A stretch of DNA of 17,734 nucleotides, taken from a virus. A program made the position numbers and the translations under genes. A model generated the notes under the pieces. That model saw nothing but the letters and a program-made list of their open reading frames with translations. It ran no database searches and had not been told where the DNA came from. The stretch is taken from the UHGV virus genome UHGV-1681308, one strand, 5' to 3'. This document shows, in pieces, positions 141-17,734 of the stretch. Every line of letters starts with the position of its first letter. The first letter of the stretch is position 1.

Positions 141-617
141 ATGACAGAGCGAGAATTGCGGCTCCGGCTGAGGCGGCTCCTGGGTACGGACAGGGGACTG
201 CCGGTCGAGAAGCTCGCTGCAGAACTGACGACACACAAGGTGGACATATTGCCGTACATGACGTGGTTGTGGAAGACACATGGACAGAAGTTCAGAGTGC
301 TGCTGACAAAGAAAGTGGCAGACTACGCAAAAGCGGCGGAAAAGGAAAAACAGAGCCTTCCGCAGCTGATCGTAAATGCTGGCACAATTTTCTTGCGACT
401 CTCAGAAGGCTCGCTTGAATCCGACAGGACTATCGAGATACTCGGTGACATGTGCGAACCTTATGCACTGTACTTCTTATTTGCAGGCGTAGGATTGCCC
501 TGCGACAAGTACCGCGCAGCAGCCAAGGAATACGCAGCTATGTTTCCTGACGCAGTGCGTGCTCTGCCTGAACCGTATAAGAAACTCGGAGAGGCTATGA
601 CACATGATACCACTTGA
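141..617 (+). CDS. hypothetical protein (158 aa), first gene downstream of the element right end
   Basis: ATG at 141 preceded by AGGAG (131..135). Stop overlaps the start of the next gene. No motif recognised. Confidence 0.6.
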   Translation: MTERELRLRLRRLLGTDRGLPVEKLAAELTTHKVDILPYMTWLWKTHGQKFRVLLTKKVADYAKAAEKEKQSLPQLIVNAGTIFLRLSEGSLESDRTIEILGDMCEPYALYFLFAGVGLPCDKYRAAAKEYAAMFPDAVRALPEPYKKLGEAMTHDTT

Positions 618-3102
618 CAAGCATGACTTGACTATGCTGCATGTGCTCAGCTCAGAGAAACTGATGCTGAAGTCGCTGAAGGCTGCCAAGGCAGGGCAGG
701 AACTGTTTCCACCGAGACGTGTACCGCATCTTGATCTGCTGTGGCGACACTTCATACGTTTCGCCATACAATCCAAGAAAGAAGGGCACTGGCTGCAGTG
801 GGACAGACAGGCGTATGTAGCTGACTGCCTCGAAGAACTGAAGCAGCGTGACGACATCAGCGACGAATGCAAAGCGCGATTCCAGGCAATATGCGTACAG
901 TATATCGGCGCTGAGCCATTGGACGCCGAGGCAGGCGACAAGCTGCTGCTGGAAGCTGTCAACGAAGCTATCAGAGCACAGATCAGCAGAGCCGTGTACA
1001 ATTCCGAGGCTTTCGACGGCATCAGACAACTGGTCAATAAAGGCGTCGCGCTGAAGGAGTCGTTGGAGACAGCTGACGAGAAGCAGAAATTGTTTGTGAA
1101 TCCGCTGCTTGAAGTCGAGACTTACCTGCATGTGTTGCCTAAGATGCCTACAGGTGTTCGCTACTTCGACAGAGTCACCAACGGCGGCATGTCTGAGGGC
1201 GAGGTAGCTTTGATTGCTGGATTGATGGGCGGTGGAAAGTGTCTTGGGAAAGACACACCCGTTCTCATGTACGACGGAACTGTAAAGAAAGTTCAGGATG
1301 TACGTGTAGGTGATCAGCTTATTGGTATGGACTCTACACCAAGAACAGTAATGTCTTTAGGTAGAGGTCGCAGTGAAATGTATAAAGTCACACCAGTAAA
1401 AGGTGATCCATTTACAGTTAACAGGTATCATATTCTGACAATGATATGCAGTGGTCCTGTAATATGGAAAGGAGTCAGATATAAACCAGGTGATCTTATT
1501 GATATCTGCGTTGAGGATCTGTACAGGCAATCCGACAGCTTTAAGTCACTTCTTAAGGTTATCAGAACAGGAGTGAACTTTAAACCTAAGGAGGAGCCTG
1601 AGTTAGATCCTTATTTTGTAGGTTTGTATTTGGGAGATGGAACGAAAGGAAAAGCCCAGATCACAACTGGTGACACAGAAGTTGTCGACTACTGTGTTAA
1701 GTATATGCAAGGTTTAGGTTTTGCATGTAATGTATCCAAAGATACTAGACATAACTGCGTTTATGTCAGTATAAGTAGAGCCAGCAACAAAACCGAAGGT
1801 GCGTTAACTATAATTCGTAGGAATACGTTTATAGATGATGAGAAGCGAATTTTGGATGTGTATAAGACTGGAAGCAGAGAGATTCGCATGAAAATACTTG
1901 CGGGTCTAGTTGACTCTGATGGATACACGCACCATGGTTTCCATGAGATAGTTACGAAGTATAGTAATCTAGCAGATGATATATGCTTCGTAGCGCGATC
2001 ATTAGGGTATGCAGCATATGTTAAAAAGTGTGAGAAAAAATGCTATAATACAGGTGCTGCAGGTACGTACTATAAGGTCAGTATATCTGGAGATTTCTCA
2101 GACTTACCTGTTTTGTTACCTAGACATAAGTTGTCAAAACGTAAGCAAGTCAAATCTGTGCTGAGGACAGGATATACTATAACCAAATTACCCGAGGATG
2201 AGTATTATGGGTTTACCATAGATGGTGATCACAGATTTCTTCTGGGTGACTTTACAATTACACATAACACAGCAACAGCAATCCAACTGGTAGGCAGTCA
2301 ACTGCTTGTAGGCAATCCAGTAGCATGGTTCACATTCGAGCAGCCGTTCGATCAGGACCTGATGCAGCGTATGGTATCCTTCATCACAGGCTACAGCCTG
2401 GACATCATACGTGGACGGGAATTCAAGGATCTGCCCGAGGACATTCGGGCAAAGTTTCTCACATTGAGCAACCAAATGTCGGACAAACTGATAGCAGCAG
2501 ACTTCTCGAACAACAACATGCTTGACAAGAACGATCCCGAGGATGATGGCTCTGTTTACAGTCTGTGCAAACGACTTGACATATGGGCTGACCAAGGCAA
2601 AGTGCCAAGCTACATCATGTTCGACTGGGTAGGCGCGGCAGTGAAACGCCTAGCGGCTGTACGCAGCATAGACATCGGGCAGATCACCAACTACATTGCG
2701 CTTGCCAATGAGATCATCGACGGTCTCGTACAGCTTGCCAAGCAGTACCATACGCGTGTAATCTTCTTTCATCAGCTGGATCCGGCGATCAAGAAGTCGC
2801 CTCCGTCCAGGAAGCCTACGACTGTGGAGCTTCAGATGATGAAGACGATGTCGAACTACACGCAGTACGCAATGGCAATCGGCAAGCGTGACGAAAATCA
2901 GCGCTGTTGGTTCATCTGCGACAAGTGCCGTAACAGCTACCCGTCAGAATGCGTCATCGAGCTGGATGGTGCACACGCCAAGTTCAATCTTCTGGAAGGA
3001 TATGCACCAGGCCGCAACGGACAGTTCATAAATATCAACGAGCTGCAGGAGGAGCTCAACGACAACAGTGACACGGCAGACAGCTACCAGCCTATAATCT
3101 GA
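604..3102 (+). CDS. intein-containing P-loop ATPase, probably a DnaB-like (SF4) replicative helicase; extein about 489 aa plus intein 343 aa
   Basis: Walker A GLMGGGK is followed immediately by Cys, and the extein resumes with T after the intein (reconstituted GLMGGGKT). C-extein has a Walker B-like YIMFDWV and a DnaB H4-like RVIFFHQLD. Extein size and P-loop position fit DnaB; a terminase or other RecA-fold ATPase is not excluded. Confidence 0.7.
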   Translation: MIPLDKHDLTMLHVLSSEKLMLKSLKAAKAGQELFPPRRVPHLDLLWRHFIRFAIQSKKEGHWLQWDRQAYVADCLEELKQRDDISDECKARFQAICVQYIGAEPLDAEAGDKLLLEAVNEAIRAQISRAVYNSEAFDGIRQLVNKGVALKESLETADEKQKLFVNPLLEVETYLHVLPKMPTGVRYFDRVTNGGMSEGEVALIAGLMGGGKCLGKDTPVLMYDGTVKKVQDVRVGDQLIGMDSTPRTVMSLGRGRSEMYKVTPVKGDPFTVNRYHILTMICSGPVIWKGVRYKPGDLIDICVEDLYRQSDSFKSLLKVIRTGVNFKPKEEPELDPYFVGLYLGDGTKGKAQITTGDTEVVDYCVKYMQGLGFACNVSKDTRHNCVYVSISRASNKTEGALTIIRRNTFIDDEKRILDVYKTGSREIRMKILAGLVDSDGYTHHGFHEIVTKYSNLADDICFVARSLGYAAYVKKCEKKCYNTGAAGTYYKVSISGDFSDLPVLLPRHKLSKRKQVKSVLRTGYTITKLPEDEYYGFTIDGDHRFLLGDFTITHNTATAIQLVGSQLLVGNPVAWFTFEQPFDQDLMQRMVSFITGYSLDIIRGREFKDLPEDIRAKFLTLSNQMSDKLIAADFSNNNMLDKNDPEDDGSVYSLCKRLDIWADQGKVPSYIMFDWVGAAVKRLAAVRSIDIGQITNYIALANEIIDGLVQLAKQYHTRVIFFHQLDPAIKKSPPSRKPTTVELQMMKTMSNYTQYAMAIGKRDENQRCWFICDKCRNSYPSECVIELDGAHAKFNLLEGYAPGRNGQFININELQEELNDNSDTADSYQPII
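1240..2268 (+). mobile_element. intein (343 aa) with LAGLIDADG homing-endonuclease domain, inserted in the Walker A P-loop
   Basis: N-terminal splicing block CLGKDTPVLMYDGT begins with Cys at 1240. Two LAGLIDADG motifs: YFVGLYLGDGTKG and KILAGLVDSDGYTHH. C-terminal block GFTIDGDHRFLLGDFTITHN is followed by the +1 nucleophile Thr at 2269. The intein DNA looks visibly AT-richer than the flanking extein. Confidence 0.85.
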
Positions 3103-5346: not shown

Positions 5347-5368
5347 GCCGGGTACTTATGTGCCCGGC
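5347..5368 (+). promoter_or_regulatory. GC-rich stem-loop between the upstream stop and the RBS of the first pentapeptide-repeat gene
   Basis: gccgggta (5347..5354) pairs with tgcccggc (5361..5368) around a 6-nt loop. It lies 3 nt upstream of the AAGGA RBS at 5371..5375. No U-tract follows, so it is not a classic intrinsic terminator. Confidence 0.35.
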
Positions 5369-5383
5369 ATAAGGACAAACAAG

Positions 5384-6406
5384 ATGAAAACAAAAAGAGT
5401 ACTGAAGAAAAACGCAATCAAGGCTTACAAAGCCTTCAACAGTGACCTGACTTGCAAAGGCTTCCGGTATGAAGTCGGCAAGGAATACCACCATAAAGGC
5501 AAGCTTGAGCTGTGCGAGGCAGGCTTCCATGCCTGCCCCAAACTGACTGACTGCTTCAATTTTTACCCGTTCGATAAAACTGAAACCAGAGTGGCCGAGG
5601 TGCTCGTCTGGGGTAAAGTCGAGTACGAAGACATAGGTGACAAGCTCTGCGCCTCAAATATCAAGGTAGTCAGAGAACTTACATGGACAGAGGTGTTGTC
5701 TCTGTGTAACAGCGGCTGCCGTAACAGTGGCTACCGTAACAGCGGCTGCCGTAACAGTGGCAACGGTAACAGTGGCAACCGTAACAGTGGCAACCGTAAC
5801 AGTGGCAACCGTAACAGCGGCTACGGTAACAGCGGCGATTGTAACAGTGGCAACTGGAATAGCGGCAACAATAACAGCGGCAATGGTAACATCGGCCACC
5901 GTAACAGCGGCTGCCGTAACAGTGGCAGCTGGAACAGCGGCGACGGTAACAGTGGCTACTTAAATACTCCGGCACAAAAGTATAGCTTTATTTTTAACAA
6001 ACAAGTTGAAAAGTCAGTCTTGGCTCAGATTGAGTTTCCGGAGTTCATGTGCTTCACTTTGTCAAAATGGATACCTGACTTCATAATGTCACAGCAGGAG
6101 AAAAAGCAGCACCCTGAATACGTTACAACAGGCGGTTATCTCAAGAAGTACACATATAAGGAAGCCTTCAGGAAGTCCTTCGAGGAAGCCAGACGCAAAC
6201 CTGACTGGCCCGAACAGCTTGAGAAGCTGAAATCACTGCCTAACTTCGATGCCAAGGTATTCGAGGAGATATCAGGCATCAAATCAAACGCACTTGGAAT
6301 CAGCGCTAAGGAGCTGGCAGACAAGGCAAAGACAGCCATGGAAGTCACAATGGCGGACATAGAGAAGGTATTCGGTTGCAAAATCAAGATTGTAGAGGAG
6401 AAGTGA
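5384..6406 (+). CDS. pentapeptide-repeat protein (N-x-G-x-x type, about 17 pentads) with conserved Cys/His-containing N-terminal domain and conserved C-terminal domain; paralog 1
   Basis: ATG at 5384 with AAGGA at 5371..5375. Central region is NSGCR NSGYR NSGCR NSGNG NSGNR NSGNR NSGNR and so on. N-terminal VLKKNAIKAYKAFNSDLTCKGFRYEVGK...CEAGFHAC and C-terminal KQHPEYVTTGGY...PDWPEQL...LPNFD.KVFEEISGIK are shared with 10835..11797. Confidence 0.8.
   Translation: MKTKRVLKKNAIKAYKAFNSDLTCKGFRYEVGKEYHHKGKLELCEAGFHACPKLTDCFNFYPFDKTETRVAEVLVWGKVEYEDIGDKLCASNIKVVRELTWTEVLSLCNSGCRNSGYRNSGCRNSGNGNSGNRNSGNRNSGNRNSGYGNSGDCNSGNWNSGNNNSGNGNIGHRNSGCRNSGSWNSGDGNSGYLNTPAQKYSFIFNKQVEKSVLAQIEFPEFMCFTLSKWIPDFIMSQQEKKQHPEYVTTGGYLKKYTYKEAFRKSFEEARRKPDWPEQLEKLKSLPNFDAKVFEEISGIKSNALGISAKELADKAKTAMEVTMADIEKVFGCKIKIVEEK
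5706..5957 (+). repeat. about 17 tandem copies of a 15-bp unit (GTAACAGYGGCNNNN) encoding the pentapeptide repeats, including three consecutive identical units
   Basis: Direct reading: cgtaacagtggcaac occurs three times back-to-back around 5765..5815, flanked by near-identical units. The period of 15 nt (5 codons) keeps the frame. Confidence 0.85.
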
Positions 6407-8234: not shown

Positions 8235-8460
8235 TCTTGATGTAGATGTGTCGGACCTTATGTGTCCGCACTGCGGTTCTGTCGACAGTGTCAAGTTGAT
8301 CGACCTTGGACCCGAACGAGATGCAGAGGGCGAATACGGTAACGTCAGATGCACCTGCTATGAGTGCGGCTGGTCGACATGTGACATGGATACAGCAGAG
8401 GACGCAGTGTACGCTTTTATCATCGGTCTCGACTGTGATATCAGGCACGACATAATATGA
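8221..8460 (+). CDS. small zinc-ribbon protein (about 79 aa)
   Basis: CPHCG ... CTCYECG four-Cys pattern. The ORF is open from 8059, but that part overlaps the preceding gene, so the start is placed at ATG 8221. Stop overlaps the next start (ATGA). Confidence 0.45.
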   Translation: MQTVNLDVDVSDLMCPHCGSVDSVKLIDLGPERDAEGEYGNVRCTCYECGWSTCDMDTAEDAVYAFIIGLDCDIRHDII

Positions 8461-8657
8461 AACCGATAGGCTACGGGAAGCTCACCAAGTTCCTCAAAGC
8501 CACAGCACCGATATCAAAGCAGTTTGAGAACGAAGTTCTGCGGGATGAGCGTCTCGCAGAACTTTTTTCGTGTGTAGCTGAGGTTGTGCTGCCGAAAGCT
8601 ACAGAACCGCAGAGATGGGCGTTGTGGCAGTGTTTCAAGGGTCTGAAAGGCGTTTAA
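8457..8657 (+). CDS. hypothetical protein (66 aa)
   Basis: ATG at 8457 overlapping the upstream stop. Ends 27 nt before the IStron left end. Confidence 0.45.
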   Translation: MKPIGYGKLTKFLKATAPISKQFENEVLRDERLAELFSCVAEVVLPKATEPQRWALWQCFKGLKGV

Positions 8658-8683
8658 CAACGCCCTTTAACCAGTGATGGCTA

Positions 8684-9110
8684 TCGAACAAGAAAGTGAA
8701 TTGCTAATAGATCCCAAGAGCCTCACGACGCCTGTAACAAGGATCGAAAGAGAAAACAAAGAAGTGAGGATACCGCAAGGCGACAGTAAGCCTAAACGGG
8801 AGTGACAACGGACGTTTAGCAGCCGAGCCATGCGTTCGACAGAACGCCAGCGCATGGAAGGTTCATCGACTATCCCAGATGGGAGTACCCGAGTAGCCAT
8901 GCTGCGACAGCAGCAAAAGTAAGGGGAAGCACTCTGGCTCAGGAATGAGTCAATGATATAGTCAGTGCTTCATGGAAACATGAAGAGTGGTCTCCTATTG
9001 ACACGGAGAAACCTGCTGTTACCCTGGCAAGGTACAGTGAACAGAACCATGGTCTCATTAAATGCAACATTAATTTGACGTTTTGATTTTCTGTATAAGG
9101 ATGTATATTA
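8684..9110 (+). ncRNA. putative group I intron ribozyme core (IStron intron module)
   Basis: R-like element GTTCATCGACTATCC (8861..8875) and S-like element GATATAGTC (8955..8963) can form P7 (GACTA/TAGTC). Several hairpins lie between them and upstream (ctaaacg/cgtttag at 8792..8819, gcgttc-gaca-gaacgc at 8832..8847, gctgc-gaca-gcagc at 8901..8914). No ORF. Not verified by a covariance model. Confidence 0.5.
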
Positions 9111-9132
9111 TCTGTATACAATAAGGAGTGCC

Positions 9133-10218
9133 ATGTACAGAGCCCACAAGATACGCATAGATTGCACAAGAGAGCAGCACAGCCTGTTAATGCAGACTGC
9201 TGGCTGCGCTCGTTATGCGTACAATTGGGGACTCGATAAGTGGGGCAAGATGTACGAAGCCTGGAAGGCTGATGCCTCGCAGGAGAAACCGGACAGATAT
9301 TCTGTAGCCAGACAGTGGACACAGGAGAAACCAGAGTGGGCAAATAAGACATCCAGAAGTCCAGTTGACTACTCTTTTATCAACCTCGGCACCGCCTTCA
9401 AGAACTTCTCAAGGCGCAAAACAAAGTACCCGAAGAAGCACAAGAGGTCACAGGGAATCTCATTCCAAGTGGCACCTGACAAGGCAGCTATAGTTGACAA
9501 CCAACTTAGACTGCCTAACATAGACTACGTGAAGCTCCGAGAGACTCCACGCTTCCAGGGCAAGATAACAGGCTACACAGTTCAGTACATAGCTTCCCAC
9601 TGGTACGTTACAATCGCCTTCGACTGTCCAGACGTCCCAAAAGAAGCACCGGAGTCCGTCGTCGGTATCGACGTAGGACTCCAGCACCCTGCTGTAGCCT
9701 CCGATGGCACCAAACTAGAGCTCCCCATAGAGAAGCTCCAAAAGCTCGAAGTCAAGAAACGTAGAGCACAGCGAGCCCTCAGCAGGAGCAAGAGAAACTC
9801 CAATGCGCGAAAGCGCAAGCGTACCAAACTCCAGCGTATACAACAGAAGATTACCAACATCCGTCAGGATGCAGCCCACAAGTTTACAACTACGGTGAGC
9901 AAAAACCACGCCACTGTAGTCACAGAAGATCTGGACATAAGTGAGCTCCAAAAGAAGGCCCCCGCACGTTCAGTGCGCAGAGCATACAACAGCTCCCTTA
10001 TGGGAACCATTCTTTGGCAGATCTCGTACAAAGCGGTGCACCATATCAAGGCACCAAAGTACTTTCCGAGCACCAAGAGATGCTCAACTTGTGGACATGT
10101 GAAGGAGGCTATGCCTCCGAACGTCAGGACATATCATTGCGACCACTGCGGTACACATCTCGATAGAGATGAGAACGCAGCTCGCAACTTGATGTTGCAA
10201 CCGTGGGTCACACGGTAA
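9133..10218 (+). CDS. tnpB: TnpB (OrfB) RuvC-like RNA-guided nuclease, IS200/IS605 family
   Basis: 361 aa. N-terminus MYRAHKIRIDCTREQHSLL...RYAYNWGL. RuvC-I GIDVGL, RuvC-II VVTEDLD, zinc finger CSTCGH...CDHCG, RuvC-III DRDENAARNL. RBS AAGGAG at 9123..9128. Confidence 0.9.
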   Translation: MYRAHKIRIDCTREQHSLLMQTAGCARYAYNWGLDKWGKMYEAWKADASQEKPDRYSVARQWTQEKPEWANKTSRSPVDYSFINLGTAFKNFSRRKTKYPKKHKRSQGISFQVAPDKAAIVDNQLRLPNIDYVKLRETPRFQGKITGYTVQYIASHWYVTIAFDCPDVPKEAPESVVGIDVGLQHPAVASDGTKLELPIEKLQKLEVKKRRAQRALSRSKRNSNARKRKRTKLQRIQQKITNIRQDAAHKFTTTVSKNHATVVTEDLDISELQKKAPARSVRRAYNSSLMGTILWQISYKAVHHIKAPKYFPSTKRCSTCGHVKEAMPPNVRTYHCDHCGTHLDRDENAARNLMLQPWVTR

Positions 10219-10326
10219 GAGGCGCGGTGATGGTACAGGCAGCATTCGCTGCAGGTACCAGATGATCCGCGAAGACAATCCGGTGTAACGCCGGATGAGA
10301 TCATGACAGTGCGTGTAACACATCGA
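10120..10326 (+). ncRNA. putative TnpB omega RNA (reRNA) scaffold overlapping the tnpB 3' end, plus about 16 nt of flank as guide (gcgtgtaacacatcga)
   Basis: Scaffold conserved with the copy at 1..119, including a hairpin at 10232..10259 with compensatory stem changes and a second conserved hairpin atccggtg-taa-cgccggat. Conservation ends exactly at 10310. The 5' boundary is a guess. Confidence 0.5.
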
Positions 10327-10834
10327 CATATAGTGTCCTGTATCTGCAGAGCAGCAGCAAACCTGCACTACATCCACGAGGGTATCGCACCCTTCTATTG
10401 GGATGGCAACAGGGCAGCTGCTGTGATGAATTGTCTAGGTATAGAACAAGATGTAGCCGCTAAAGGAAAGCGCAGACTGCTAGTGCATTTGATGTGTCTG
10501 CTGGGTGAACCTGCCGGACTGATGTTCAAGGTATCTCTGAGCTGCAACATGCTGGAGTACTTGCTGGGCAAACATTTTGGCGTCTCTTTTCGAAAGTATA
10601 ATGCAGCGGCTGAAGAGATCGCCGGTTGTGTCTTCAAGTGCACAGTAAGTGAGGACACAGCAGGGGCCTATCTAGCGGATTTCAGCGCAACACAAGCTAT
10701 GAAAGACCACAACAGAAAGCTGGCAGAGATGCGCATAAACCCAAGAAAATGTAAAACACCTGCAATGCCATGTGCATCCTGTACTAAAACCAGGGCTCAG
10801 TGCATTTTGGCATGTAAAGTTAAGGACAAACAAA

Positions 10835-11797
10835 ATGAAAACAGAAAAAGTACTGAAGAAAAATGCAATCAAGGCCTATAAAGCCTTCAACAGCGACCTG
10901 ACCTGCAGAGGCTTCCAATATGAAGTCGGTAAGACCTACAGACATATATTCCTAATCCGCTGTTGCGAGTCAGGATTCCATGCTTGTGAAAGGCTGGTTG
11001 ACTGCTTTGGCTACTATGAACCAAACCAAGCAAAAACTCGAATTTGCGAGGTTCTGGTCTGGGGCGATATTCAGAGGCATGATAAAGACACCAAGTTATG
11101 CGCATCCAGAATCCATATTGTCAAAGAGTTGTCCTGGAACAAAGTATGTCGTCTATGCAATAATACCGGCATCGGCAATCAGGGCTTATATAACTCTGGG
11201 AATTATAACAGTGGAAACTCAAATTCCGGTAACTGGAATGCAGGCAATAACAACAAAGGTAAGTACAATTCAGGTGATTGTAACATTGGTTTAGGTAATG
11301 TAGGCACAGGCAATATAGGCAATAATAACTGTGGCCAATATAATTACGGTCATAGGAATTCCGGAAACAATAACATAGGATGCCGCAATGTAGGAAACTA
11401 CAATACGGGCTACTATAATGTCGGTAACTGGAACAAAGGGTCGTTTAATATCGGCTGCTTCAATACAGCAGATGCCATTGTACATATGTTTAACAAGCCT
11501 GTTGTCGGAATCAGTCCATTCGATATTTTAGTCCCAGGTTTCTGCATCTTTGATACGACAGAATGGGTGTCGGCCAGATGTATGACAGATGAAGAAAAGA
11601 AGCAGCACCCTGAGTACGTTACAACAGGAGGATACCAAAAACAATACGCCTACAAGGAAGCCTTCAGGAAGTCCTTCGAGAAGGCAAAGCGACTCCCAGA
11701 TTGGCCCGAACAGCTTAAGAGGCTAAAGGCGCTGCCGAATTTCGATGTAAAGGTATTTGAGGAGATATCAGGTATCAAGGAAGAGGAACTTATGTAA
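10835..11797 (+). CDS. pentapeptide-repeat protein (degenerate N-x-G-x-x repeats), paralog 2 of 5384..6406
   Basis: ATG at 10835 with AAGGA at 10822..10826; the RBS and first ~110 nt are roughly 90% identical to paralog 1. Repeat region GNYNSGNSNSGNWNAGNNNKGKYNSGDCNIGLGNVGTGNIGNNN... The conserved C-terminal domain ends ...FEEISGIKEEELM. Confidence 0.8.
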   Translation: MKTEKVLKKNAIKAYKAFNSDLTCRGFQYEVGKTYRHIFLIRCCESGFHACERLVDCFGYYEPNQAKTRICEVLVWGDIQRHDKDTKLCASRIHIVKELSWNKVCRLCNNTGIGNQGLYNSGNYNSGNSNSGNWNAGNNNKGKYNSGDCNIGLGNVGTGNIGNNNCGQYNYGHRNSGNNNIGCRNVGNYNTGYYNVGNWNKGSFNIGCFNTADAIVHMFNKPVVGISPFDILVPGFCIFDTTEWVSARCMTDEEKKQHPEYVTTGGYQKQYAYKEAFRKSFEKAKRLPDWPEQLKRLKALPNFDVKVFEEISGIKEEELM

Positions 11798-11807
11798 AGA
11801 AAGGAGC

Positions 11808-12149
11808 ATGAAAGTGCAAGTGACAGAACTTGAAACGAGAGAAGTAACAGTGACACGCTACATACTGACTGAGAAGGTCTTCCACCTTGAAGAGTGCCCT
11901 GATTGGGCTCAGTATGCAGCTGTGGATGATGATGGGACTGCCTATTTTTATATGTGTCCACCTAGTCCCAGTGTACATGGGTATAGGTCTGCCTCAGCGT
12001 GTATTCGGATAGACACCGGTTATTCGCTTTTCGACGCCACCGACTGGCAGCACAGCCTTATCGAGCGGCCAAAGAAGGTACTCGAGGTTACCATGTCGGA
12101 CATCGAGAAGAAATATGGATGCAAAGTCAAGATTGTACGGGAGGAGTGA
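11808..12149 (+). CDS. small CPDWA-motif protein carrying the C-terminal tail motif that is fused to paralog 1 (EVTM.DIEK..GCK.KIV.E)
   Basis: RBS AAGGAG at 11801..11806. ATG 11808 is only 1 nt from the RBS, so GTG 11814 may be the true start. Contains EECPDWAQYAAVDDDGTAYFY, similar to 12685..13287. Ends ...EVTMSDIEKKYGCKVKIVREE, compared with ...EVTMADIEKVFGCKIKIVEEK at the end of 5384..6406. Confidence 0.5.
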   Translation: MKVQVTELETREVTVTRYILTEKVFHLEECPDWAQYAAVDDDGTAYFYMCPPSPSVHGYRSASACIRIDTGYSLFDATDWQHSLIERPKKVLEVTMSDIEKKYGCKVKIVREE

Positions 12150-12151
12150 AA

Positions 12152-12688
12152 ATGACTACAAAAGCATTTGTTACAAAATATGGGACTCAGATTAGCGGTG
12201 ATTTGGTCGATGAGCTGTCGCATCATTCAGATGTTCGTAGTTTCGTTCACTGGCTGCTGCATGAATGCGGCTATCTCGAATCCTTGAAGTTTGACTGGCT
12301 GGTTCAGTTGCTCAGAACCAGAGATGCAGACAGCTTGAGGCCCTATGTTGCCGAAGCTGTACTCAAATCCTGGCAGCAGCCAGTGTCCATCGGTATTCCG
12401 TCATCACTGTCGCCTGAAGCTGAAGCCTTGCTTACGGCAATGATAAATGACCATGAACATACGCAAGATGTGTATGCGCATGCAGTGAACATGAAAGAGA
12501 TCTCTGTGCAGAATGTACAGGTAGCTTATTGCGCCTCACCAGATATCAAGCGTTTGCTGTGGCAAATCCTGCACGGTATTATTGTCTGGAAATCTCTTGA
12601 TTACCGGTTATCAGAAACGTATGTAACACAGCAGGTGCTCAAATATATGCAACCAGTTGTATCTTTGTTTGAGGAGGACCTGGAATGA
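12152..12688 (+). CDS. hypothetical protein (178 aa)
   Basis: ATG at 12152 with GAGGAG at 12141..12146. The longer ORF from 11999 lacks an RBS. Confidence 0.55.
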   Translation: MTTKAFVTKYGTQISGDLVDELSHHSDVRSFVHWLLHECGYLESLKFDWLVQLLRTRDADSLRPYVAEAVLKSWQQPVSIGIPSSLSPEAEALLTAMINDHEHTQDVYAHAVNMKEISVQNVQVAYCASPDIKRLLWQILHGIIVWKSLDYRLSETYVTQQVLKYMQPVVSLFEEDLE

Positions 12689-13287
12689 CTGTAGACGATT
12701 TGGTTATGTTCGATACCAAGAAGCTTCTTGACTTCTTTAAGATAGATCAGTGCCCTGACTGGGCAGAGTGGGTCGCTGTAGATAGTGATGGAACGGTCTG
12801 TTATTATTCTGCTGAACCTACTATACTTAATACTTATAAGGATGAATGGAGGTGTGAAACAGTTAGACATAACTTTCGACCTGTCAGGATAAATGGCAAT
12901 AATATTAAAATTACTGTCGAGGACTGGACAAAAGCGAAAGTCAAGAGGCCTCCTACAGGCAATGAAATGTTTCTTGGTAAGTGCAGAAACATTTATGTCC
13001 ACATGAAAGACTCTAAGTATGTAGTTGCTTTCGAGTGCCGCACAGAGGATACCTATGACAACGATAGCTATTATTTGGAATTGACAGTCGAATTGGCAGC
13101 AGAGATATTCTCGAGAGACTTAGGGCATATCATTGCTGAGTGGCTGGGTAAGGATGTGTCTGTAGAAACCGAAGGTTCACATATTCGCAGTGCTCTTCAG
13201 TCCAGTATACCTGAAGCTTTCTCAGCCGCAGTTACTGATGTTCGTCTGTCATCAGGGCCAGGCACGAAAGGTCTGTGCAAAATATGA
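12685..13287 (+). CDS. CPDWA-motif protein (200 aa), paralogous domain to 11808..12149
   Basis: ATG at 12685 with GAGGAGG at 12671..12677. Motif DQCPDWAEWVAVDSDGTVCYY near the N-terminus. AT-richer than its neighbours. Confidence 0.6.
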   Translation: MTVDDLVMFDTKKLLDFFKIDQCPDWAEWVAVDSDGTVCYYSAEPTILNTYKDEWRCETVRHNFRPVRINGNNIKITVEDWTKAKVKRPPTGNEMFLGKCRNIYVHMKDSKYVVAFECRTEDTYDNDSYYLELTVELAAEIFSRDLGHIIAEWLGKDVSVETEGSHIRSALQSSIPEAFSAAVTDVRLSSGPGTKGLCKI

Positions 13288-13324
13288 AAACACTCAAAGA
13301 TTAAAGTAACAGAGAGGAGAATGT

Positions 13325-14665
13325 ATGAAAAAAGGACTCGGAAACCTGCTGGATGCACTCAGTAAGGCAGACGGCGGCGTCAGTATGTCCATTACAGAAT
13401 TCAAAGAAGCCCAGTACGGCATTCCGCTTAAGCATTACTGTTTGCAGTATCTTTTCGGCAGCACCGGGCTCAGGTACGGCGGCTTTTATCTGCTTGCCGG
13501 TAAGCCGAAGTCGTGCAAATCGCCCTTTGCTTTCTTCCTTGCACATCTCAGCTGCGAGAATGATGGCATTGCATATGTGTACGAACTTGAAGGCAAGGCG
13601 TCACCGACGTTGCTGACCAGCATGTTTGCAGACAGGCCCGAATGGCGAGAGGATGGCGGCCCTTTCAAGCTCATCCGAGGACTGACATTGGACGGCGCCG
13701 AGAAGCACCTTACAAAGTCTGTGCTCAAACTTTTCAAGCAGTACGAGGTTTACGATACTCCGCTGCTGATCGACTGGGACTCCATCTCAGGAGCTGCGAT
13801 GTCAGATGTCGTGTCCAAGATCGAGAAGGAAGGCGTAGCCAGTAAAGGCTACTATGAAAAAGCGCACATCATGAAGCATCTGACAGAGAGCTGGGTCGCA
13901 CTTACCAACAACATGCCTGTCGTGTTCGTCGGCGTCTTGCAGGAAAAGGAAAAGGCTGCAGAGGGATGGGCACCTGCAGGCGGACCGCAGAAGTCGTATG
14001 GCGGTGGCGATTCGCAGTTGTTCAAGGCAGGTACATTACTGTCGTTCTCTCACAGCACGCTGCAGAACGGTGCTGGCAAGCTCGTTCGTATCAAGACTGC
14101 ACTGAACGGATTTGCAGACAGCAGAGGCATTGAAGTAAAGTTTGTCTGGGATCAGTTCGGCGACCTTGAGACCGATTCACAGGGGCACAAGTGGCTTTTC
14201 GCAGAGGCGACGGCAAAGTGCCTCGCACAGCCGAAGATCGTAGGCGAGCTCAGAGACATCATTGATGTGAAGATCAATGATTCCGGCGACAGAGTGACTT
14301 GCAAGACGTTCGGTCTTGACAAGGTTACAGCAACAGAGTTCGAGGAAGCCCTGTTTGCGCCTGAGAACGCCAAGGTACTGGAAGATCTGTACAGATACCA
14401 AAAGATAGAAAAGATCAAGCTGCCCTCAGAGTATGCAGCTTACGCCGAGAAAGCAGGAGACAAGGAAGCCGCATATAAAGAGGCGCAGAAGCAGGCACAG
14501 CTCGAAGAGCGTGAGGCCAAGGCTGCGGAAGCTGCCGCAAAGGAAGCAGCCAAGCAGGCAAAACGAGAGGCGAAAGTCAAGAAGTCAGCTGCGGCATCCA
14601 ATCCGTTAGCGGCTTTAGCAGACATGGCAAAGAAAGCTGAGGCATCAGATGCAAAAGCTGAATAA
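13325..14665 (+). CDS. RecA-family recombinase, UvsX-like, with a Lys/Ala/Glu-rich low-complexity C-terminal tail
   Basis: Variant Walker A LLAGKPKSCKS resembles the T4 UvsX GPSKSFKS type. Walker B-like PLLIDWDS. L2-like GGPQKSYGGGDSQLFKAG. YVYELEGKASPTLLTSMFADRPEW resembles the UvsX segment after Walker A. RBS GAGGAG at 13314..13319. Confidence 0.7.
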   Translation: MKKGLGNLLDALSKADGGVSMSITEFKEAQYGIPLKHYCLQYLFGSTGLRYGGFYLLAGKPKSCKSPFAFFLAHLSCENDGIAYVYELEGKASPTLLTSMFADRPEWREDGGPFKLIRGLTLDGAEKHLTKSVLKLFKQYEVYDTPLLIDWDSISGAAMSDVVSKIEKEGVASKGYYEKAHIMKHLTESWVALTNNMPVVFVGVLQEKEKAAEGWAPAGGPQKSYGGGDSQLFKAGTLLSFSHSTLQNGAGKLVRIKTALNGFADSRGIEVKFVWDQFGDLETDSQGHKWLFAEATAKCLAQPKIVGELRDIIDVKINDSGDRVTCKTFGLDKVTATEFEEALFAPENAKVLEDLYRYQKIEKIKLPSEYAAYAEKAGDKEAAYKEAQKQAQLEEREAKAAEAAAKEAAKQAKREAKVKKSAAASNPLAALADMAKKAEASDAKAE

Positions 14666-14990
14666 CAAGCGCGTGTTCTGTACACCTTACGACGATCAGC
14701 GTATCGTGACAGCAAAAATCAAGAACGAAAAACACTATGTACTGAAAGCATGTCCGTTCTGCGGACGCAAGCCGGTAATCGAGACAGTGGAGCCGATATT
14801 CCATGATGATAAAGTCCAGTACTTTGTCTCATGTGCGCACCACGGCTGCGACTGCTACACAAGAACCTATCGCAGCCCAGGTGAGGCAATCGCGAAATGG
14901 AACAGACGCATCAGTCCGCTCGATCGCATTGTCGCTTCTGACTTGAAACGCAGTCTTAAAGCAGCGCAGAAAGAGGCGACAAATGTGTGA
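14649..14990 (+). CDS. Lar-family restriction-alleviation-like small Cys protein (putative anti-restriction)
   Basis: CPFCG ... SCAHHGCDC ... EAIAKWNRR matches the pattern I recall for Lar-family proteins (CPFCG zinc motif, conserved AW-NRR near the C-terminus). The identification rests on recalled motifs, not a search. Confidence 0.5.
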   Translation: MQKLNNKRVFCTPYDDQRIVTAKIKNEKHYVLKACPFCGRKPVIETVEPIFHDDKVQYFVSCAHHGCDCYTRTYRSPGEAIAKWNRRISPLDRIVASDLKRSLKAAQKEATNV

Positions 14991-15684
14991 TACATCAGAG
15001 TGGCCCACTACAGCTCAGGCTGTCAAGGAAATGATGACCGAAGTCTGTGATAAGAACCTGTTCGATTCAGGCGGCGCTTACGGATACGCCTACGAGCGTA
15101 GGGCCAATTGTGACAAGGAACCTGAATTCAAGACACATTACGAGCTCCTCGACAACGGCAAGTTGTACATAGAGGCTACGAAAAGCATGTACTGGCATCT
15201 TGTGAACACTTGTCAGTACAGACACGACCTCACTGTTATGCTGGATGCATATGCGGATCTCAAAGACGAGCGCTACGGAACATGTCTTGGTGAGGACTTC
15301 TTCGCCTCGTTTGGTCTCAAGTCAGGGTCAGACAATACATGCAACACTGAGACTATGCTGGACGGTACGTTTCTGTTCACGCATGCATACATCAGCGATG
15401 AAGCGACAGACCTTTTCGTGATCAGCACACACAATGGCTGTGACGTCAGATCTGGTTACAGCAGCGCCAAAGTATTCGAGAGTCCGGACGCTGAAGTCCT
15501 GTACAGCTTGGACAGTGCAAATCTTATGTGTCACAGATGTGATATACAGTTCGACCTGTCATCCAGTGGTACACGGACACTTGATCCTGACCAGTTCAGA
15601 CTCGAAAAGAACGATGACTTGCCGTACTTTGTTGATGGTAAACTGTACTGCCCAAAGTGCCACAAGCCGCTGGAGGTGTCCTGA
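14983..15684 (+). CDS. hypothetical protein with C-terminal zinc-ribbon-like CxxC...CxxC
   Basis: ATG at 14983 with AAGAGG RBS. MCHRCD ... CPKCHKP at the C-terminus. Confidence 0.55.
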   Translation: MCDTSEWPTTAQAVKEMMTEVCDKNLFDSGGAYGYAYERRANCDKEPEFKTHYELLDNGKLYIEATKSMYWHLVNTCQYRHDLTVMLDAYADLKDERYGTCLGEDFFASFGLKSGSDNTCNTETMLDGTFLFTHAYISDEATDLFVISTHNGCDVRSGYSSAKVFESPDAEVLYSLDSANLMCHRCDIQFDLSSSGTRTLDPDQFRLEKNDDLPYFVDGKLYCPKCHKPLEVS

Positions 15685-16160
15685 TGCCGAATGCACAGCT
15701 TATGGCTGCGCTGCACGCAAGTACCAAAGCGTTGCGTGAAATGGCACGCGACGACGCCACATACGACTTCGTGTATGCGCACAAAAACATGTTCGTCGGC
15801 AACAGAGAAGCCTTCAAGTCTGCTGTAGCCGCGTGTCAGGAGCGCTCAGGCAGAGAGCTGCTTGACAAGCTGGATCTGCAAGAGATCTGCATCGAGAAAG
15901 TAACCGAAGCAGAACTGCTGCACAGCTGCTACTACTTTGTCGACAGTCCACTGTATAAGCGCTTCATTCAGCTCACCAGCAGGCATGGCGGCATAGGTAC
16001 GGCAATCTTCGTCGTCAACAAGCGAGGCGTTGTTGTCACTAATAAGTACAGTCTGGACGCCTACGTACGGGTCAAGCATGTACTTGGCAGCACCGGTAAG
16101 TTGCCTGACATCATGTGGGCGCCAATAGAAGACCTTAAAGGTTTCACGTTCTACAACTAA
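15684..16160 (+). CDS. hypothetical protein (158 aa)
   Basis: ATG at 15684 overlaps the upstream stop (TGATG), with GGAGGTG at 15672..15678. Confidence 0.55.
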   Translation: MPNAQLMAALHASTKALREMARDDATYDFVYAHKNMFVGNREAFKSAVAACQERSGRELLDKLDLQEICIEKVTEAELLHSCYYFVDSPLYKRFIQLTSRHGGIGTAIFVVNKRGVVVTNKYSLDAYVRVKHVLGSTGKLPDIMWAPIEDLKGFTFYN

Positions 16161-16169
16161 GGAGGTTGG

Positions 16170-17734
16170 ATGCTGGAAACAAAAGTCATGTTCAATGCCA
16201 CAGAGCTCACAATCAAAGTGTCTGTGTGGGCACGGGGCGACCCGTTCCCTGCTATTGGGCATGCTGTAGGTATAGACACAGAAACCGAACTTATTACGGA
16301 CGCCGAGCTTACGCCGCCATTGGTTGTACTCGGCGTTTTCAATCCTGCCGACATGACTTGCTACCAGATAGCATGGAGTGATGCACAGTACTTCATGCAG
16401 GAGCTGCTTAAGCGTGACTGCAAGCTGTACTTCGCCAATGCAGGGTTCGACTACTTCGAGCTGGAGAGTGATGAGCTTCGGGATGCGGTCAGCAATGACC
16501 GTCTCGTAGACTTGCTCATCAGAGCTCCGCTTAAAGAGATCGCCACTATAGGGTACATCAGAACGCACAGCCTGAAGGACGCCTGCCAATGGCATCTCAA
16601 TTACGAGATGGACAAACATGAGGACGAAGGCGACCAGGCAGCTCGTGTCACGTTCCGCAGGAACAAAGACATCACAGATGAGCAGCGCATTTACCTGGCA
16701 ATCGACTGCGCGGCTACTTATTACGGGTGCGAGGCGATTGGTCCTCAGGCGACAGAGTGTACACATACACGCGGTCAGATAGTCCTGTATCATATCAGCA
16801 AGAACGGTTTTCCGTACGACCCGTACATGTTCGACTACTGCGAGAAGCTGCTGCAGCAGCATATGGATCAGTATCGTGCAGAGCTCATCACGTACGGGTA
16901 TCCGGATCCGTACAAGAAAGATATGCCCACTGAAATCAAGCAGCTGCAGGACGGCTGGCCTATGTTCAGGGACGCCTGGTTCGCTGCGCATATCAAAGAA
17001 AAGTACCAGTTCGAGGACTCGCTGCCAGGCAAGAGCACAGTAAAGCGCATACTGCTGTACGGCACTGCGTATATGCAGCACGGTACAGATAAAGGCACTC
17101 TGGCGCGGGTGTTCGCAGCATTGCTGCTGCAGGACAAGAACCTGTCCAAAAAGGAACAGGCTGCATATGACCAGCTGGTGGAGGAGCACGACTTCCTGGA
17201 TGCCTGCAATGGTATCGGCAAGAAGGAGGTTTGGCCGACGCTGCTGGTCGCGTGGATGCGTGCCGAGATGGACGGCAAGGACATCGCTGGCATATGGCAG
17301 GCAGTGGACGATGCGGTGCAGGACCATCCGCAATGGTTCTGTACTGAGGAGCCTGTCAAGCCCAAGGCATTCATGCAGGACCACCTGCGGGAACTGCAGG
17401 AAAAGTACCCTGGACTGGAGTTCGACAAGACGCTTAAGTCAGGTGAGCTGAAGTGCTCAAAGAAGGACGCGTGGAAGCTGGCGGATGCGGGGGTGAACGA
17501 TCCGTTGCTGACCGCGTACGTGAACTTTGGTCATGTGCAAAAGTACAAGTCGTCGTTCACGAACAGGGAATACCTCAGGAGCGACGGCAGAGTAAGGTGC
17601 CGCTTTGGCATCGTGGAGAGCGGTCGGTTTGGCCGCTTCACACCGCGAGGTGTGTCGAACAAGAAAGTGAATTGCTGGAACACCTTAACGGGTAACGCCG
17701 AAGGCAATCAGCAGCCGAGCCTTGTATCGAGAGA
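16170..17734 (+). CDS. family-A DNA polymerase, N-terminal part (3'-5' exonuclease domain plus start of polymerase domain); runs off the window and is probably interrupted by an IStron from about 17655
   Basis: Strong RBS TAAGGAGG at 16158..16165. Exo I VGIDTETE, Exo II NAGFDYFEL, Exo III YLAIDCAATYY. The frame stays open to the window end; the track omits it only because it has no stop in the window. From 17655 the DNA matches the IStron 5' end, so sequence beyond about 17654 is probably intron, not exon. Confidence 0.65.
   Translation, partial: MLETKVMFNATELTIKVSVWARGDPFPAIGHAVGIDTETELITDAELTPPLVVLGVFNPADMTCYQIAWSDAQYFMQELLKRDCKLYFANAGFDYFELESDELRDAVSNDRLVDLLIRAPLKEIATIGYIRTHSLKDACQWHLNYEMDKHEDEGDQAARVTFRRNKDITDEQRIYLAIDCAATYYGCEAIGPQATECTHTRGQIVLYHISKNGFPYDPYMFDYCEKLLQQHMDQYRAELITYGYPDPYKKDMPTEIKQLQDGWPMFRDAWFAAHIKEKYQFEDSLPGKSTVKRILLYGTAYMQHGTDKGTLARVFAALLLQDKNLSKKEQAAYDQLVEEHDFLDACNGIGKKEVWPTLLVAWMRAEMDGKDIAGIWQAVDDAVQDHPQWFCTEEPVKPKAFMQDHLRELQEKYPGLEFDKTLKSGELKCSKKDAWKLADAGVNDPLLTAYVNFGHVQKYKSSFTNREYLRSDGRVRCRFGIVESGRFGRFTPRGVSNKKVNCWNTLTGNAEGNQQPSLVSR
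17655..17734 (+). mobile_element. 5' terminus of a second IStron-like element (group I intron module) inside the polymerase gene; truncated by the window edge
   Basis: 17655..17676 is identical (22/22) to the left end at 8684..8705. The downstream block agcagccgagcc and the taacggg segment are shared with 8792..8830. This copy lacks an ~85-nt segment present at 8706..8790. Confidence 0.5.

Follow-up and report, generated by a model that had tools for sequence, protein, structure and literature searches.

Group I introns interrupt the replication genes of a number of phages, including Bacillus phage SPO1 and Staphylococcus phages Twort and K. Introns of this class in phage replication genes, DNA polymerase genes among them, are a classical finding (review PMC3984707; PMC3428280), one example being the group IA2 intron that interrupts the DNA polymerase gene of the cyanophage Pf-WMP3 (PMC3428280). 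IStrons combine a 5′ group I ribozyme with a gene derived from IS200/IS605 or IS607 and with transposon ends that serve as splice sites. They include the CdISt1 and BcISt1 groups of Tourasse et al. 2014 (PMC4227781) and CboIStron (bioRxiv 10.1101/2023.11.20.567912), and phage IStrons are already known from the C. botulinum phages c-st and D-1873 (PMC4227781). In the human gut, the Zeta-group crAss-like phages have genomes of 145-192 kb in which introns and inteins reach an “unprecedented” density (Yutin et al. 2021, PMC7886860). The Zeta-group introns were found via their endonuclease domains, and TnpB is not mentioned in that paper (PMC7886860). A screen of this kind would probably miss ORF-less introns such as those described below.

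The stretch of DNA analysed here, termed the window, is 17,734 nt long and constitutes an entire contig (ENA ERZ773229 NODE_1285_length_17734) of an uncultured human gut phage with a genome of ~190 kb. It terminates inside the feature under study. Its last 110 nt (17625-17734, + strand) are very probably the 5′ third of a group I intron that is compact, lacks an ORF and lies in a family-A DNA polymerase gene. Like the known phage polymerase introns, this is a self-splicing-type ribozyme that sits in an essential replication gene, at a codon that is highly conserved. Unlike them, it does not encode a homing endonuclease, it shares one 2.5-kb coding sequence with five other introns, some of the six being separated by exons of only 27 and 9 nt, and it has a near-identical (99%) copy in a second, unrelated gene. 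With the IStron found at ~8654 in the same window it shares a ribozyme family, while the insertion sequence component is absent.

Polymerase exon 1 and the IStron found no match among GenBank phages by megablast or tblastn, and the C-terminal half of the spliced polymerase matches only the polymerases of Thermus, Vibrio and Staphylococcus phages, at 24-27% identity. A record look-up for the window protein encoded at 15657-16160 returned none. As in the Zeta group, these are human-gut metagenomic phages with few GenBank homologs, related contigs of 191.6 and 192.1 kb, and both a PolA and a DnaB-type helicase. The likeness is circumstantial, consisting of size, habitat and intron/intein density, and the window contains no TerL or capsid gene. 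Elsewhere in the window (5360-6406 and 10772-11797), and in several copies in the related contigs L002 and L006, there are paralogous genes with DUF7666 and pentapeptide/NxGxx-type repeats, which are internally repetitive and strain-variable.

The polymerase frame opens at ATG 16170 and, as an earlier note on this DNA had stated, runs without a stop up to the final base, 17734. Exon 1 occupies 16170-17624 on the + strand (485 codons, MLETKV…RFGIVESG) and aligns full-length to the intronless proteins P0001, P0002 and P0004, which carry PF00476. Taken alone, exon 1 gives only a weak 3′-5′ exonuclease match (PF01612, E 0.006), and PF00476 is not found in it. Six full-length intronless homologs (P0001, P0002, P0004 and P0014-P0016), which are 38-67% identical and all carry PF00476, are uninterrupted at the junction, where they read …(S/T)(G/L)R(T/S)…PN(L/I/M/V)Q(Q/N)(Y/L)PS… (TGRTSASGPNLQQYPSHD in P0001). 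Therefore, exon 1 ends with GAG AGC GGT, at T17624. The insertion point is a Gly/Arg codon boundary within the conserved …(S/T)GR(T/L)S..PNLQ… segment, just upstream of motif A.

This places the discontinuity between 17624 and 17625, 30 nt upstream of the position 17655 originally proposed, and 17625-17654 is already intron, comprising the 3′ strand of P1 and the whole of P2. The peptide SGRFGRFTP had been likened to the start of the family-A segment TGRLSS..P. Only “…ESG” belongs to the polymerase, whereas “RFGRFTP” is read-through into the intron and its likeness to that segment is coincidental; bases of the P2 hairpin had been read as the polymerase codons “…FTPRGV”. The same read-through occurs in the gene call P0003 (…ESGRFGRFTPRGVSNKKVNCW…), which is 97% identical and has 267 member sequences.

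The continuation beyond 17734 can be read from L012 (ERZ914739, 21 kb), a contig from another sample and a different molecule, which is 99.94% identical to window positions 9178-17734 (~8.5 kb) and extends past the break. Exon 1 corresponds to L012 6993-8447, and the 110 nt of intron sequence 3′ of 17624 are identical (110/110) to L012 8448-8557. The full intron 1 in L012 is 308 nt long (8448-8755), contains no ORF (its longest stop-free stretch is 66 codons) and lacks tnpB. It ends …CAAGCCUG/CGC with a terminal G at 8755, and the reading frame is restored across this 3′ splice site, which was assessed in L012; the 3′ end falls outside the window. Downstream of it, L012 reads CGC ACA TCG GCC TCT AAG CCC AAC CTT, encoding RTSASKPNL, so that the spliced join is ESG/RTSASKPNLQQYP, which matches the intronless homologs. 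The expectation that the polymerase frame would resume downstream was thus borne out, as was the proposal that the gene is interrupted: the homologs are uninterrupted, and the interrupting element is of a self-splicing type with a ribozyme related to that of the IStron at ~8654. In more distant relatives (L001, L002 and L005) intron 1 is 309-347 nt long, again without an ORF.

If there were no intron, 17625-17734 would encode a lineage-specific in-frame insertion in the polymerase, with a peptide that includes RFGRFTPRGVSNKK. The open frame at the window end agrees with such an insertion, but the read-through ORF in L012 stops ~66 codons into the element (a 551-aa gene call), and the peptide encoded by 17625-17734 is absent from all full-length homologous polymerases, including the portion from 17655 for which an earlier check had been suggested. 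In addition, the sequence scores as a group I intron, and the downstream exons of 27 and 9 nt can be joined only at the RNA level. An in-frame insertion is therefore scarcely credible.

In a comparison with the Rfam group I model (RF00028, gathering score 50), L012 8438-8677 scores 55.1 bits (E 1.7e-13), so that the model recognizes the conserved catalytic core (P3-P9). The intron fragment of the window reaches only 12.3 bits by itself (E 0.75), with a flag for truncation at the 3′ end; at the gathering threshold Rfam returned nothing on the window, and permissive mode was required. The window part of intron 1 contains the 3′ strand of P1, P2, J2/3, the 5′ strand of P3, P4-P5-P4′ and the start of P6. 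P1 (17618-17638, + strand) consists of GAGCGGU/CG (17618-26), a GUU loop and the internal guide sequence UGGCCGCUU (17630-38). Within it, U17624 pairs with a G of the guide, and this U·G wobble identifies the 5′ splice site. A helix search, the Rfam covariance-model alignment and the minimum-free-energy fold all agree on this placement. Moreover, in a scripted search of five further insertion sites of the family, P1 covaries with the exon, and the splice-site U·G is kept at four of the five.

P2 is the hairpin CACACC-GCGA-GGUGUG (17639-17654, + strand), which has a GNRA loop and is supported by both the covariance-model alignment and the fold. In intron 2 the conserved core is likewise preceded by this hairpin, and in the IStron by an equivalent one with a GUGA loop. 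This hairpin was also considered as P1, with a splice site at ~17648-17654, and was rejected because it offers no U·G pair, because it recurs in other family members and because the homolog junction is ESG/R.

The relationship to the IStron was recognized from a repeat. The window contains exactly two copies of the 22-mer TCGAACAAGAAAGTGAATTGCT, one at 8684-8705 and the other at 17655-17676 (22/22 nt). None is expected by chance, and 200 shuffles gave no match with three or fewer mismatches. In the intron the block (17655-17676, + strand) spans J2/3, the 5′ strand of P3, J3/4 and the start of P4, which form the conserved core of the family, and it is also present in other intron-family members of L001 and L002. 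The repeat is thus real, but the DNA from 17655 onwards is not, as had been claimed, identical to the 5′ end of the IStron: the identity stops after 22 nt, and the IStron begins not at 8684 but at ~8654. Past the 22-mer the loci diverge, with one further common block of 12 nt, AGCAGCCGAGCC (17710-17721, + strand, equal to 8818-8829), which covers the 3′ strand of P4 and the start of P6. Overall, the two ribozymes are ~55% identical. That both ribozymes belong to a single intron family accounts for the 22-nt identity.

The IStron itself occupies 8654-10310 on the + strand (1657 nt) and consists of a ribozyme (~8654-9010), tnpB (9133-10218) and a right end. Rfam in permissive mode places a group I intron at 8642-8985 (31.9 bits, E 1e-5), and the ORF at 9133-10218 has OrfB_IS605, HTH and TNB domains (Pfam), its TnpB aligning full-length to the ISDra2 TnpB structures 8exa and 8h1j (E 1e-40). 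The flanks form one ORF of unknown function, with exons at 8457-8653 and 10311-10881. In seven related contigs the element is precisely absent, with window position 8653 joined to 10311 and an empty site that reads GGCGT/GCGTG (GGCGT/GCGTGTAACAC; GGCGT/GCGTGTAAC). Given these domains and this precise absence in relatives, the element is therefore a genuine, mobile, tnpB-only IStron. It has no tnpA. IStron copies are mobile in these phages, and others occur in L002, L004, L015 and L018.

Like described IStrons, the 8654-10310 element has a 5′ group I ribozyme, tnpB and a right end, lies inside an ORF and is precisely absent in relatives. Unlike CdISt1, BcISt1 and CboIStron, it is tnpB-only, its TnpB is ISDra2-like and its P1 lacks a U·G at the junction. 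GT is repeated at both junctions, which leaves the boundaries ambiguous by up to 2 nt. The junctions fail the joint group I rules, giving either exon U with intron U or exon G with intron G, and P1 (GGCGUU/AACGCC) has a junction pair of U-A or G-C. A similar “splice after G” has been reported for IStrons of the BcISt1 type.

The earlier note had interpreted the interruption of the polymerase gene as a second IStron. The intron stands (308 nt in L012), but the IStron does not. Although both the polymerase intron and the 8654 element have a 5′ group I ribozyme, the polymerase copy of intron 1 contains no IS200/IS605- or IS607-derived gene in L012, L001, L002 or L005. Its ends are also not transposon ends, since the intron 3′ end …GUGUGUACACAUCAAGCCUG bears no relation to the right end of the IStron, …GAUGAGAUCAUGACAGU. 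A check for a tnpB and a right-end scaffold downstream of 17734 had been suggested; the extended sequence has the 308-nt intron followed by exon 2 and neither of the two.

One scaffold appears to say otherwise. L015 (a JGI scaffold, 8476-10061) is 100% identical to window 15751-17734 and then, after ~145 nt of intron, leads to a tnpB with 85% identity to that of the window. Together with the core block shared with the IStron at ~8654 and the mobility of IStrons in these phages, this could indicate a polymerase intron that carries tnpB and transposon ends. However, L015 diverges from L012 at ~145 nt into the intron, and 48 N then precede the tnpB cassette. The right end of that cassette (…GATCATGACAGT) adjoins GCGAAAGCTTGCAG… and a sigma-70-like gene, with no polymerase exon after it. 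In a 192-kb genome this sigma gene lies ~31 kb from the polymerase gene (126,336 compared to 158,318), and the corresponding site is empty. L015 was rejected as a polymerase-tnpB link, on account of the 48-N gap and the distant sigma-gene locus, and is probably a scaffold jump between two intron-family members, induced by the repeat. In contrast, the gap-free, same-strain L012 has a 308-nt ORF-less intron followed by exon 2, and L001, L002 and L005 agree with it. A second IStron in the polymerase gene is accordingly improbable. The ribozyme at ~8654 additionally acquired an ISDra2-like tnpB and became an IStron, and the polymerase intron did not. L015 does show a second IStron copy in the strain population of the window, in the gene upstream of the sigma-70-like gene.

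The behavior of the assemblies bears on whether the exon-intron junction is itself an artefact, a chimeric contig end derived from a repeat. The window ends in a repeat. Five contigs (L003 and L007-L010) terminate no more than 127 nt into polymerase intron 1, and L014 terminates at the same base as the window, so that seven contigs from different assemblies stop within the first 127 nt of the intron. L015, moreover, shows that chimeras arise at intron 1. Evidently, the intron family is an assembly-breaking repeat, and the contig breaks at 17734 because the assembler failed to resolve it. The junction GAGAGCGGT/CGGTTTGGCC, however, is found in at least 12 independent contigs from different samples and assemblers, two of which (95 and 192 kb) run uninterrupted across it, and the polymerase exons are collinear downstream. 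An artefactual junction is thus very improbable. A scan of viral contigs for the window’s own exact junction pattern gave 0 matches because the relatives differ at one base.

L012 contains the whole polymerase gene, in seven exons of 1455, 27, 92, 229, 9, 411 and 246 nt and six introns of 308, 271, 221, 295, 236 and 256 nt, all of which are ORF-less. At all six, the 5′ exon ends in T (U) and the intron ends in G. Joining the exons yields a coding sequence of 2469 nt and a protein of 822 amino acids, which aligns with PF00476-carrying homologs and contains the family-A motifs A (DYSFAELVALA), B (RAKAVNFGLPGG; RQRAKAVNFGLPGG) and C (NFVHDE). Five of the six introns match RF00028, with scores of 55.5, 55.1, 42.7, 32.6 and 24.2 bits. 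The 236-nt intron that follows the 9-nt exon (L012 9900-10135) has the same U/…G/ boundaries, with no RF00028 match and no GAATTGC core, and it may belong to a different intron class.

Two of the exons are exceptionally short. The 27-nt micro-exon (L012 8756-8782, RTSASKPNL) lies between adjacent introns, and the 9-nt micro-exon AATTTCGGT (L012 9891-9899; L002 13486-13494) encodes the NFG of motif B. These 9 nt have to pair in P1 with the intron that follows and also act as the 3′ exon for the intron that precedes. A direct join of exons 3 and 4 in L002 as AKAV/DNKLLPGG was rejected because the 9-nt exon sits between two introns. The predicted ligated junction of exons 1 and 2a is GAGAGCGGT/CGCACATCGG. 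Further predicted polymerase junctions are CCCAACCTT/CAGCAGTAT, AGCTT/CGCAGAG and GTCCAT/GATGAAGC, and those of the 9-nt exon are GCAGTT/AATTTCGGT/CTGCCAGG.

Guanosine-dependent self-splicing, and the order in which its steps would occur, can be inferred from these sequences. In the folded primary transcript, the last exon bases GAGCGGU would pair with the guide UGGCCGCUU, and exogenous guanosine would attack after U17624. The freed exon would then attack after the terminal G of the intron (L012 8755), ligating …GAG AGC GGU to CGC ACA UCG… to restore the Gly/Arg junction. The five downstream introns (271, 221, 295, 236 and 256 nt) would be removed likewise, producing the 2469-nt mRNA and the 822-aa polymerase.

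Related phages carry different subsets of these introns. L001 and L002, with 91-93% DNA identity, have a different set in the polymerase gene, some with degenerate GIY-YIG or HNH remnants. An HNH-like stretch is found at L001 13195-14221, in an AT-rich polymerase intron of ~1 kb after NFG. Intron 2 of L001 and L002 contains, at ~12268, a GIY-YIG-like start (MDTKPVGFIYRIYCTL) with a stop after 16 codons, and this is thus a degenerate remnant. Gene calls of the homologs break at common hot spots, namely PNV/, DFSF/, AKAV/ and NFG/, while a break at ESG/ occurs only in the lineage of the window.

A copy of intron 1 is also found in another gene. In L004 and L006 (L006 1077-1386) it lies within the Walker-A codons of a helicase gene, as ATG GGC GGT/intron/GGA AAA ACA, and the window extein MGGGKTAT shows that the helicase join is exact. 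The helicase copy (L004) and the polymerase copy (L005), which are both on contig UOJO01001440, are identical at 307 of 310 positions. The polymerase (ESG/R) and helicase (MGG/GKT) sites share only GCGGT plus one more base, or 6 of the last 9 exon bases. This 99% identical copy, again preceded by an exon ending in GCGGT, independently fixes the first base of the intron. Combined with the restriction of the ESG/ break to one lineage, it suggests that intron 1 is a recent arrival. The window’s own helicase ORF (604-3102, DnaB/KaiC-type) has a 343-aa intein at 1240-2268, with Hint and LAGLIDADG domains, after the Walker-A GGGK; the group I intron position of L004 and L006 is 6 nt upstream of this intein site (after window 1233). 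Further introns of the same family are present in other genes of the 192-kb genome (L001 21125-21485; L020 7868-8230), and one of these splits an ORF that is continuous in L002 (…SEGYVLPF/…).

The copies in two genes would fit guide-directed ectopic insertion rather than endonuclease homing. It is possible, though on balance doubtful, that this ORF-less family spreads in general without a homing endonuclease, by ectopic insertion (reverse splicing or similar) at 5-6-nt guide matches. Consistent with such spread are the six introns in one polymerase gene, five of which score as group I, which have left a 9-nt exon, and the capture of a same-family ribozyme by an ISDra2-like TnpB to give phage-borne IStrons. 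If this were true, these genomes would offer a natural setting where plain introns coexist and exchange modules with RNA-guided IStrons of the same ribozyme lineage.

The polymerase intron is an ordinary occurrence for an intron-rich gut phage, and none of the findings on it overturns current understanding. What is notable is that one gene has six ORF-less introns and an exon of 9 nt, that the helicase gene has a 99% identical copy, and that a TnpB-bearing derivative of the same ribozyme family coexists with them. For annotation, gene calls at present give the polymerase of an abundant gut-phage lineage as a truncated product of ~520-555 aa that ends in a spurious tail; the six splice junctions recover the complete 822-aa enzyme and explain its fragmentation. 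For the biology of these phages, the locus reveals a dense packing of ORF-less group I introns in one essential gene and indicates that an intron moved very recently between genes that are unrelated. In addition, the presence of plain introns beside a TnpB-bearing IStron with a ribozyme of the same family makes these phages useful for the study of IStron origin.
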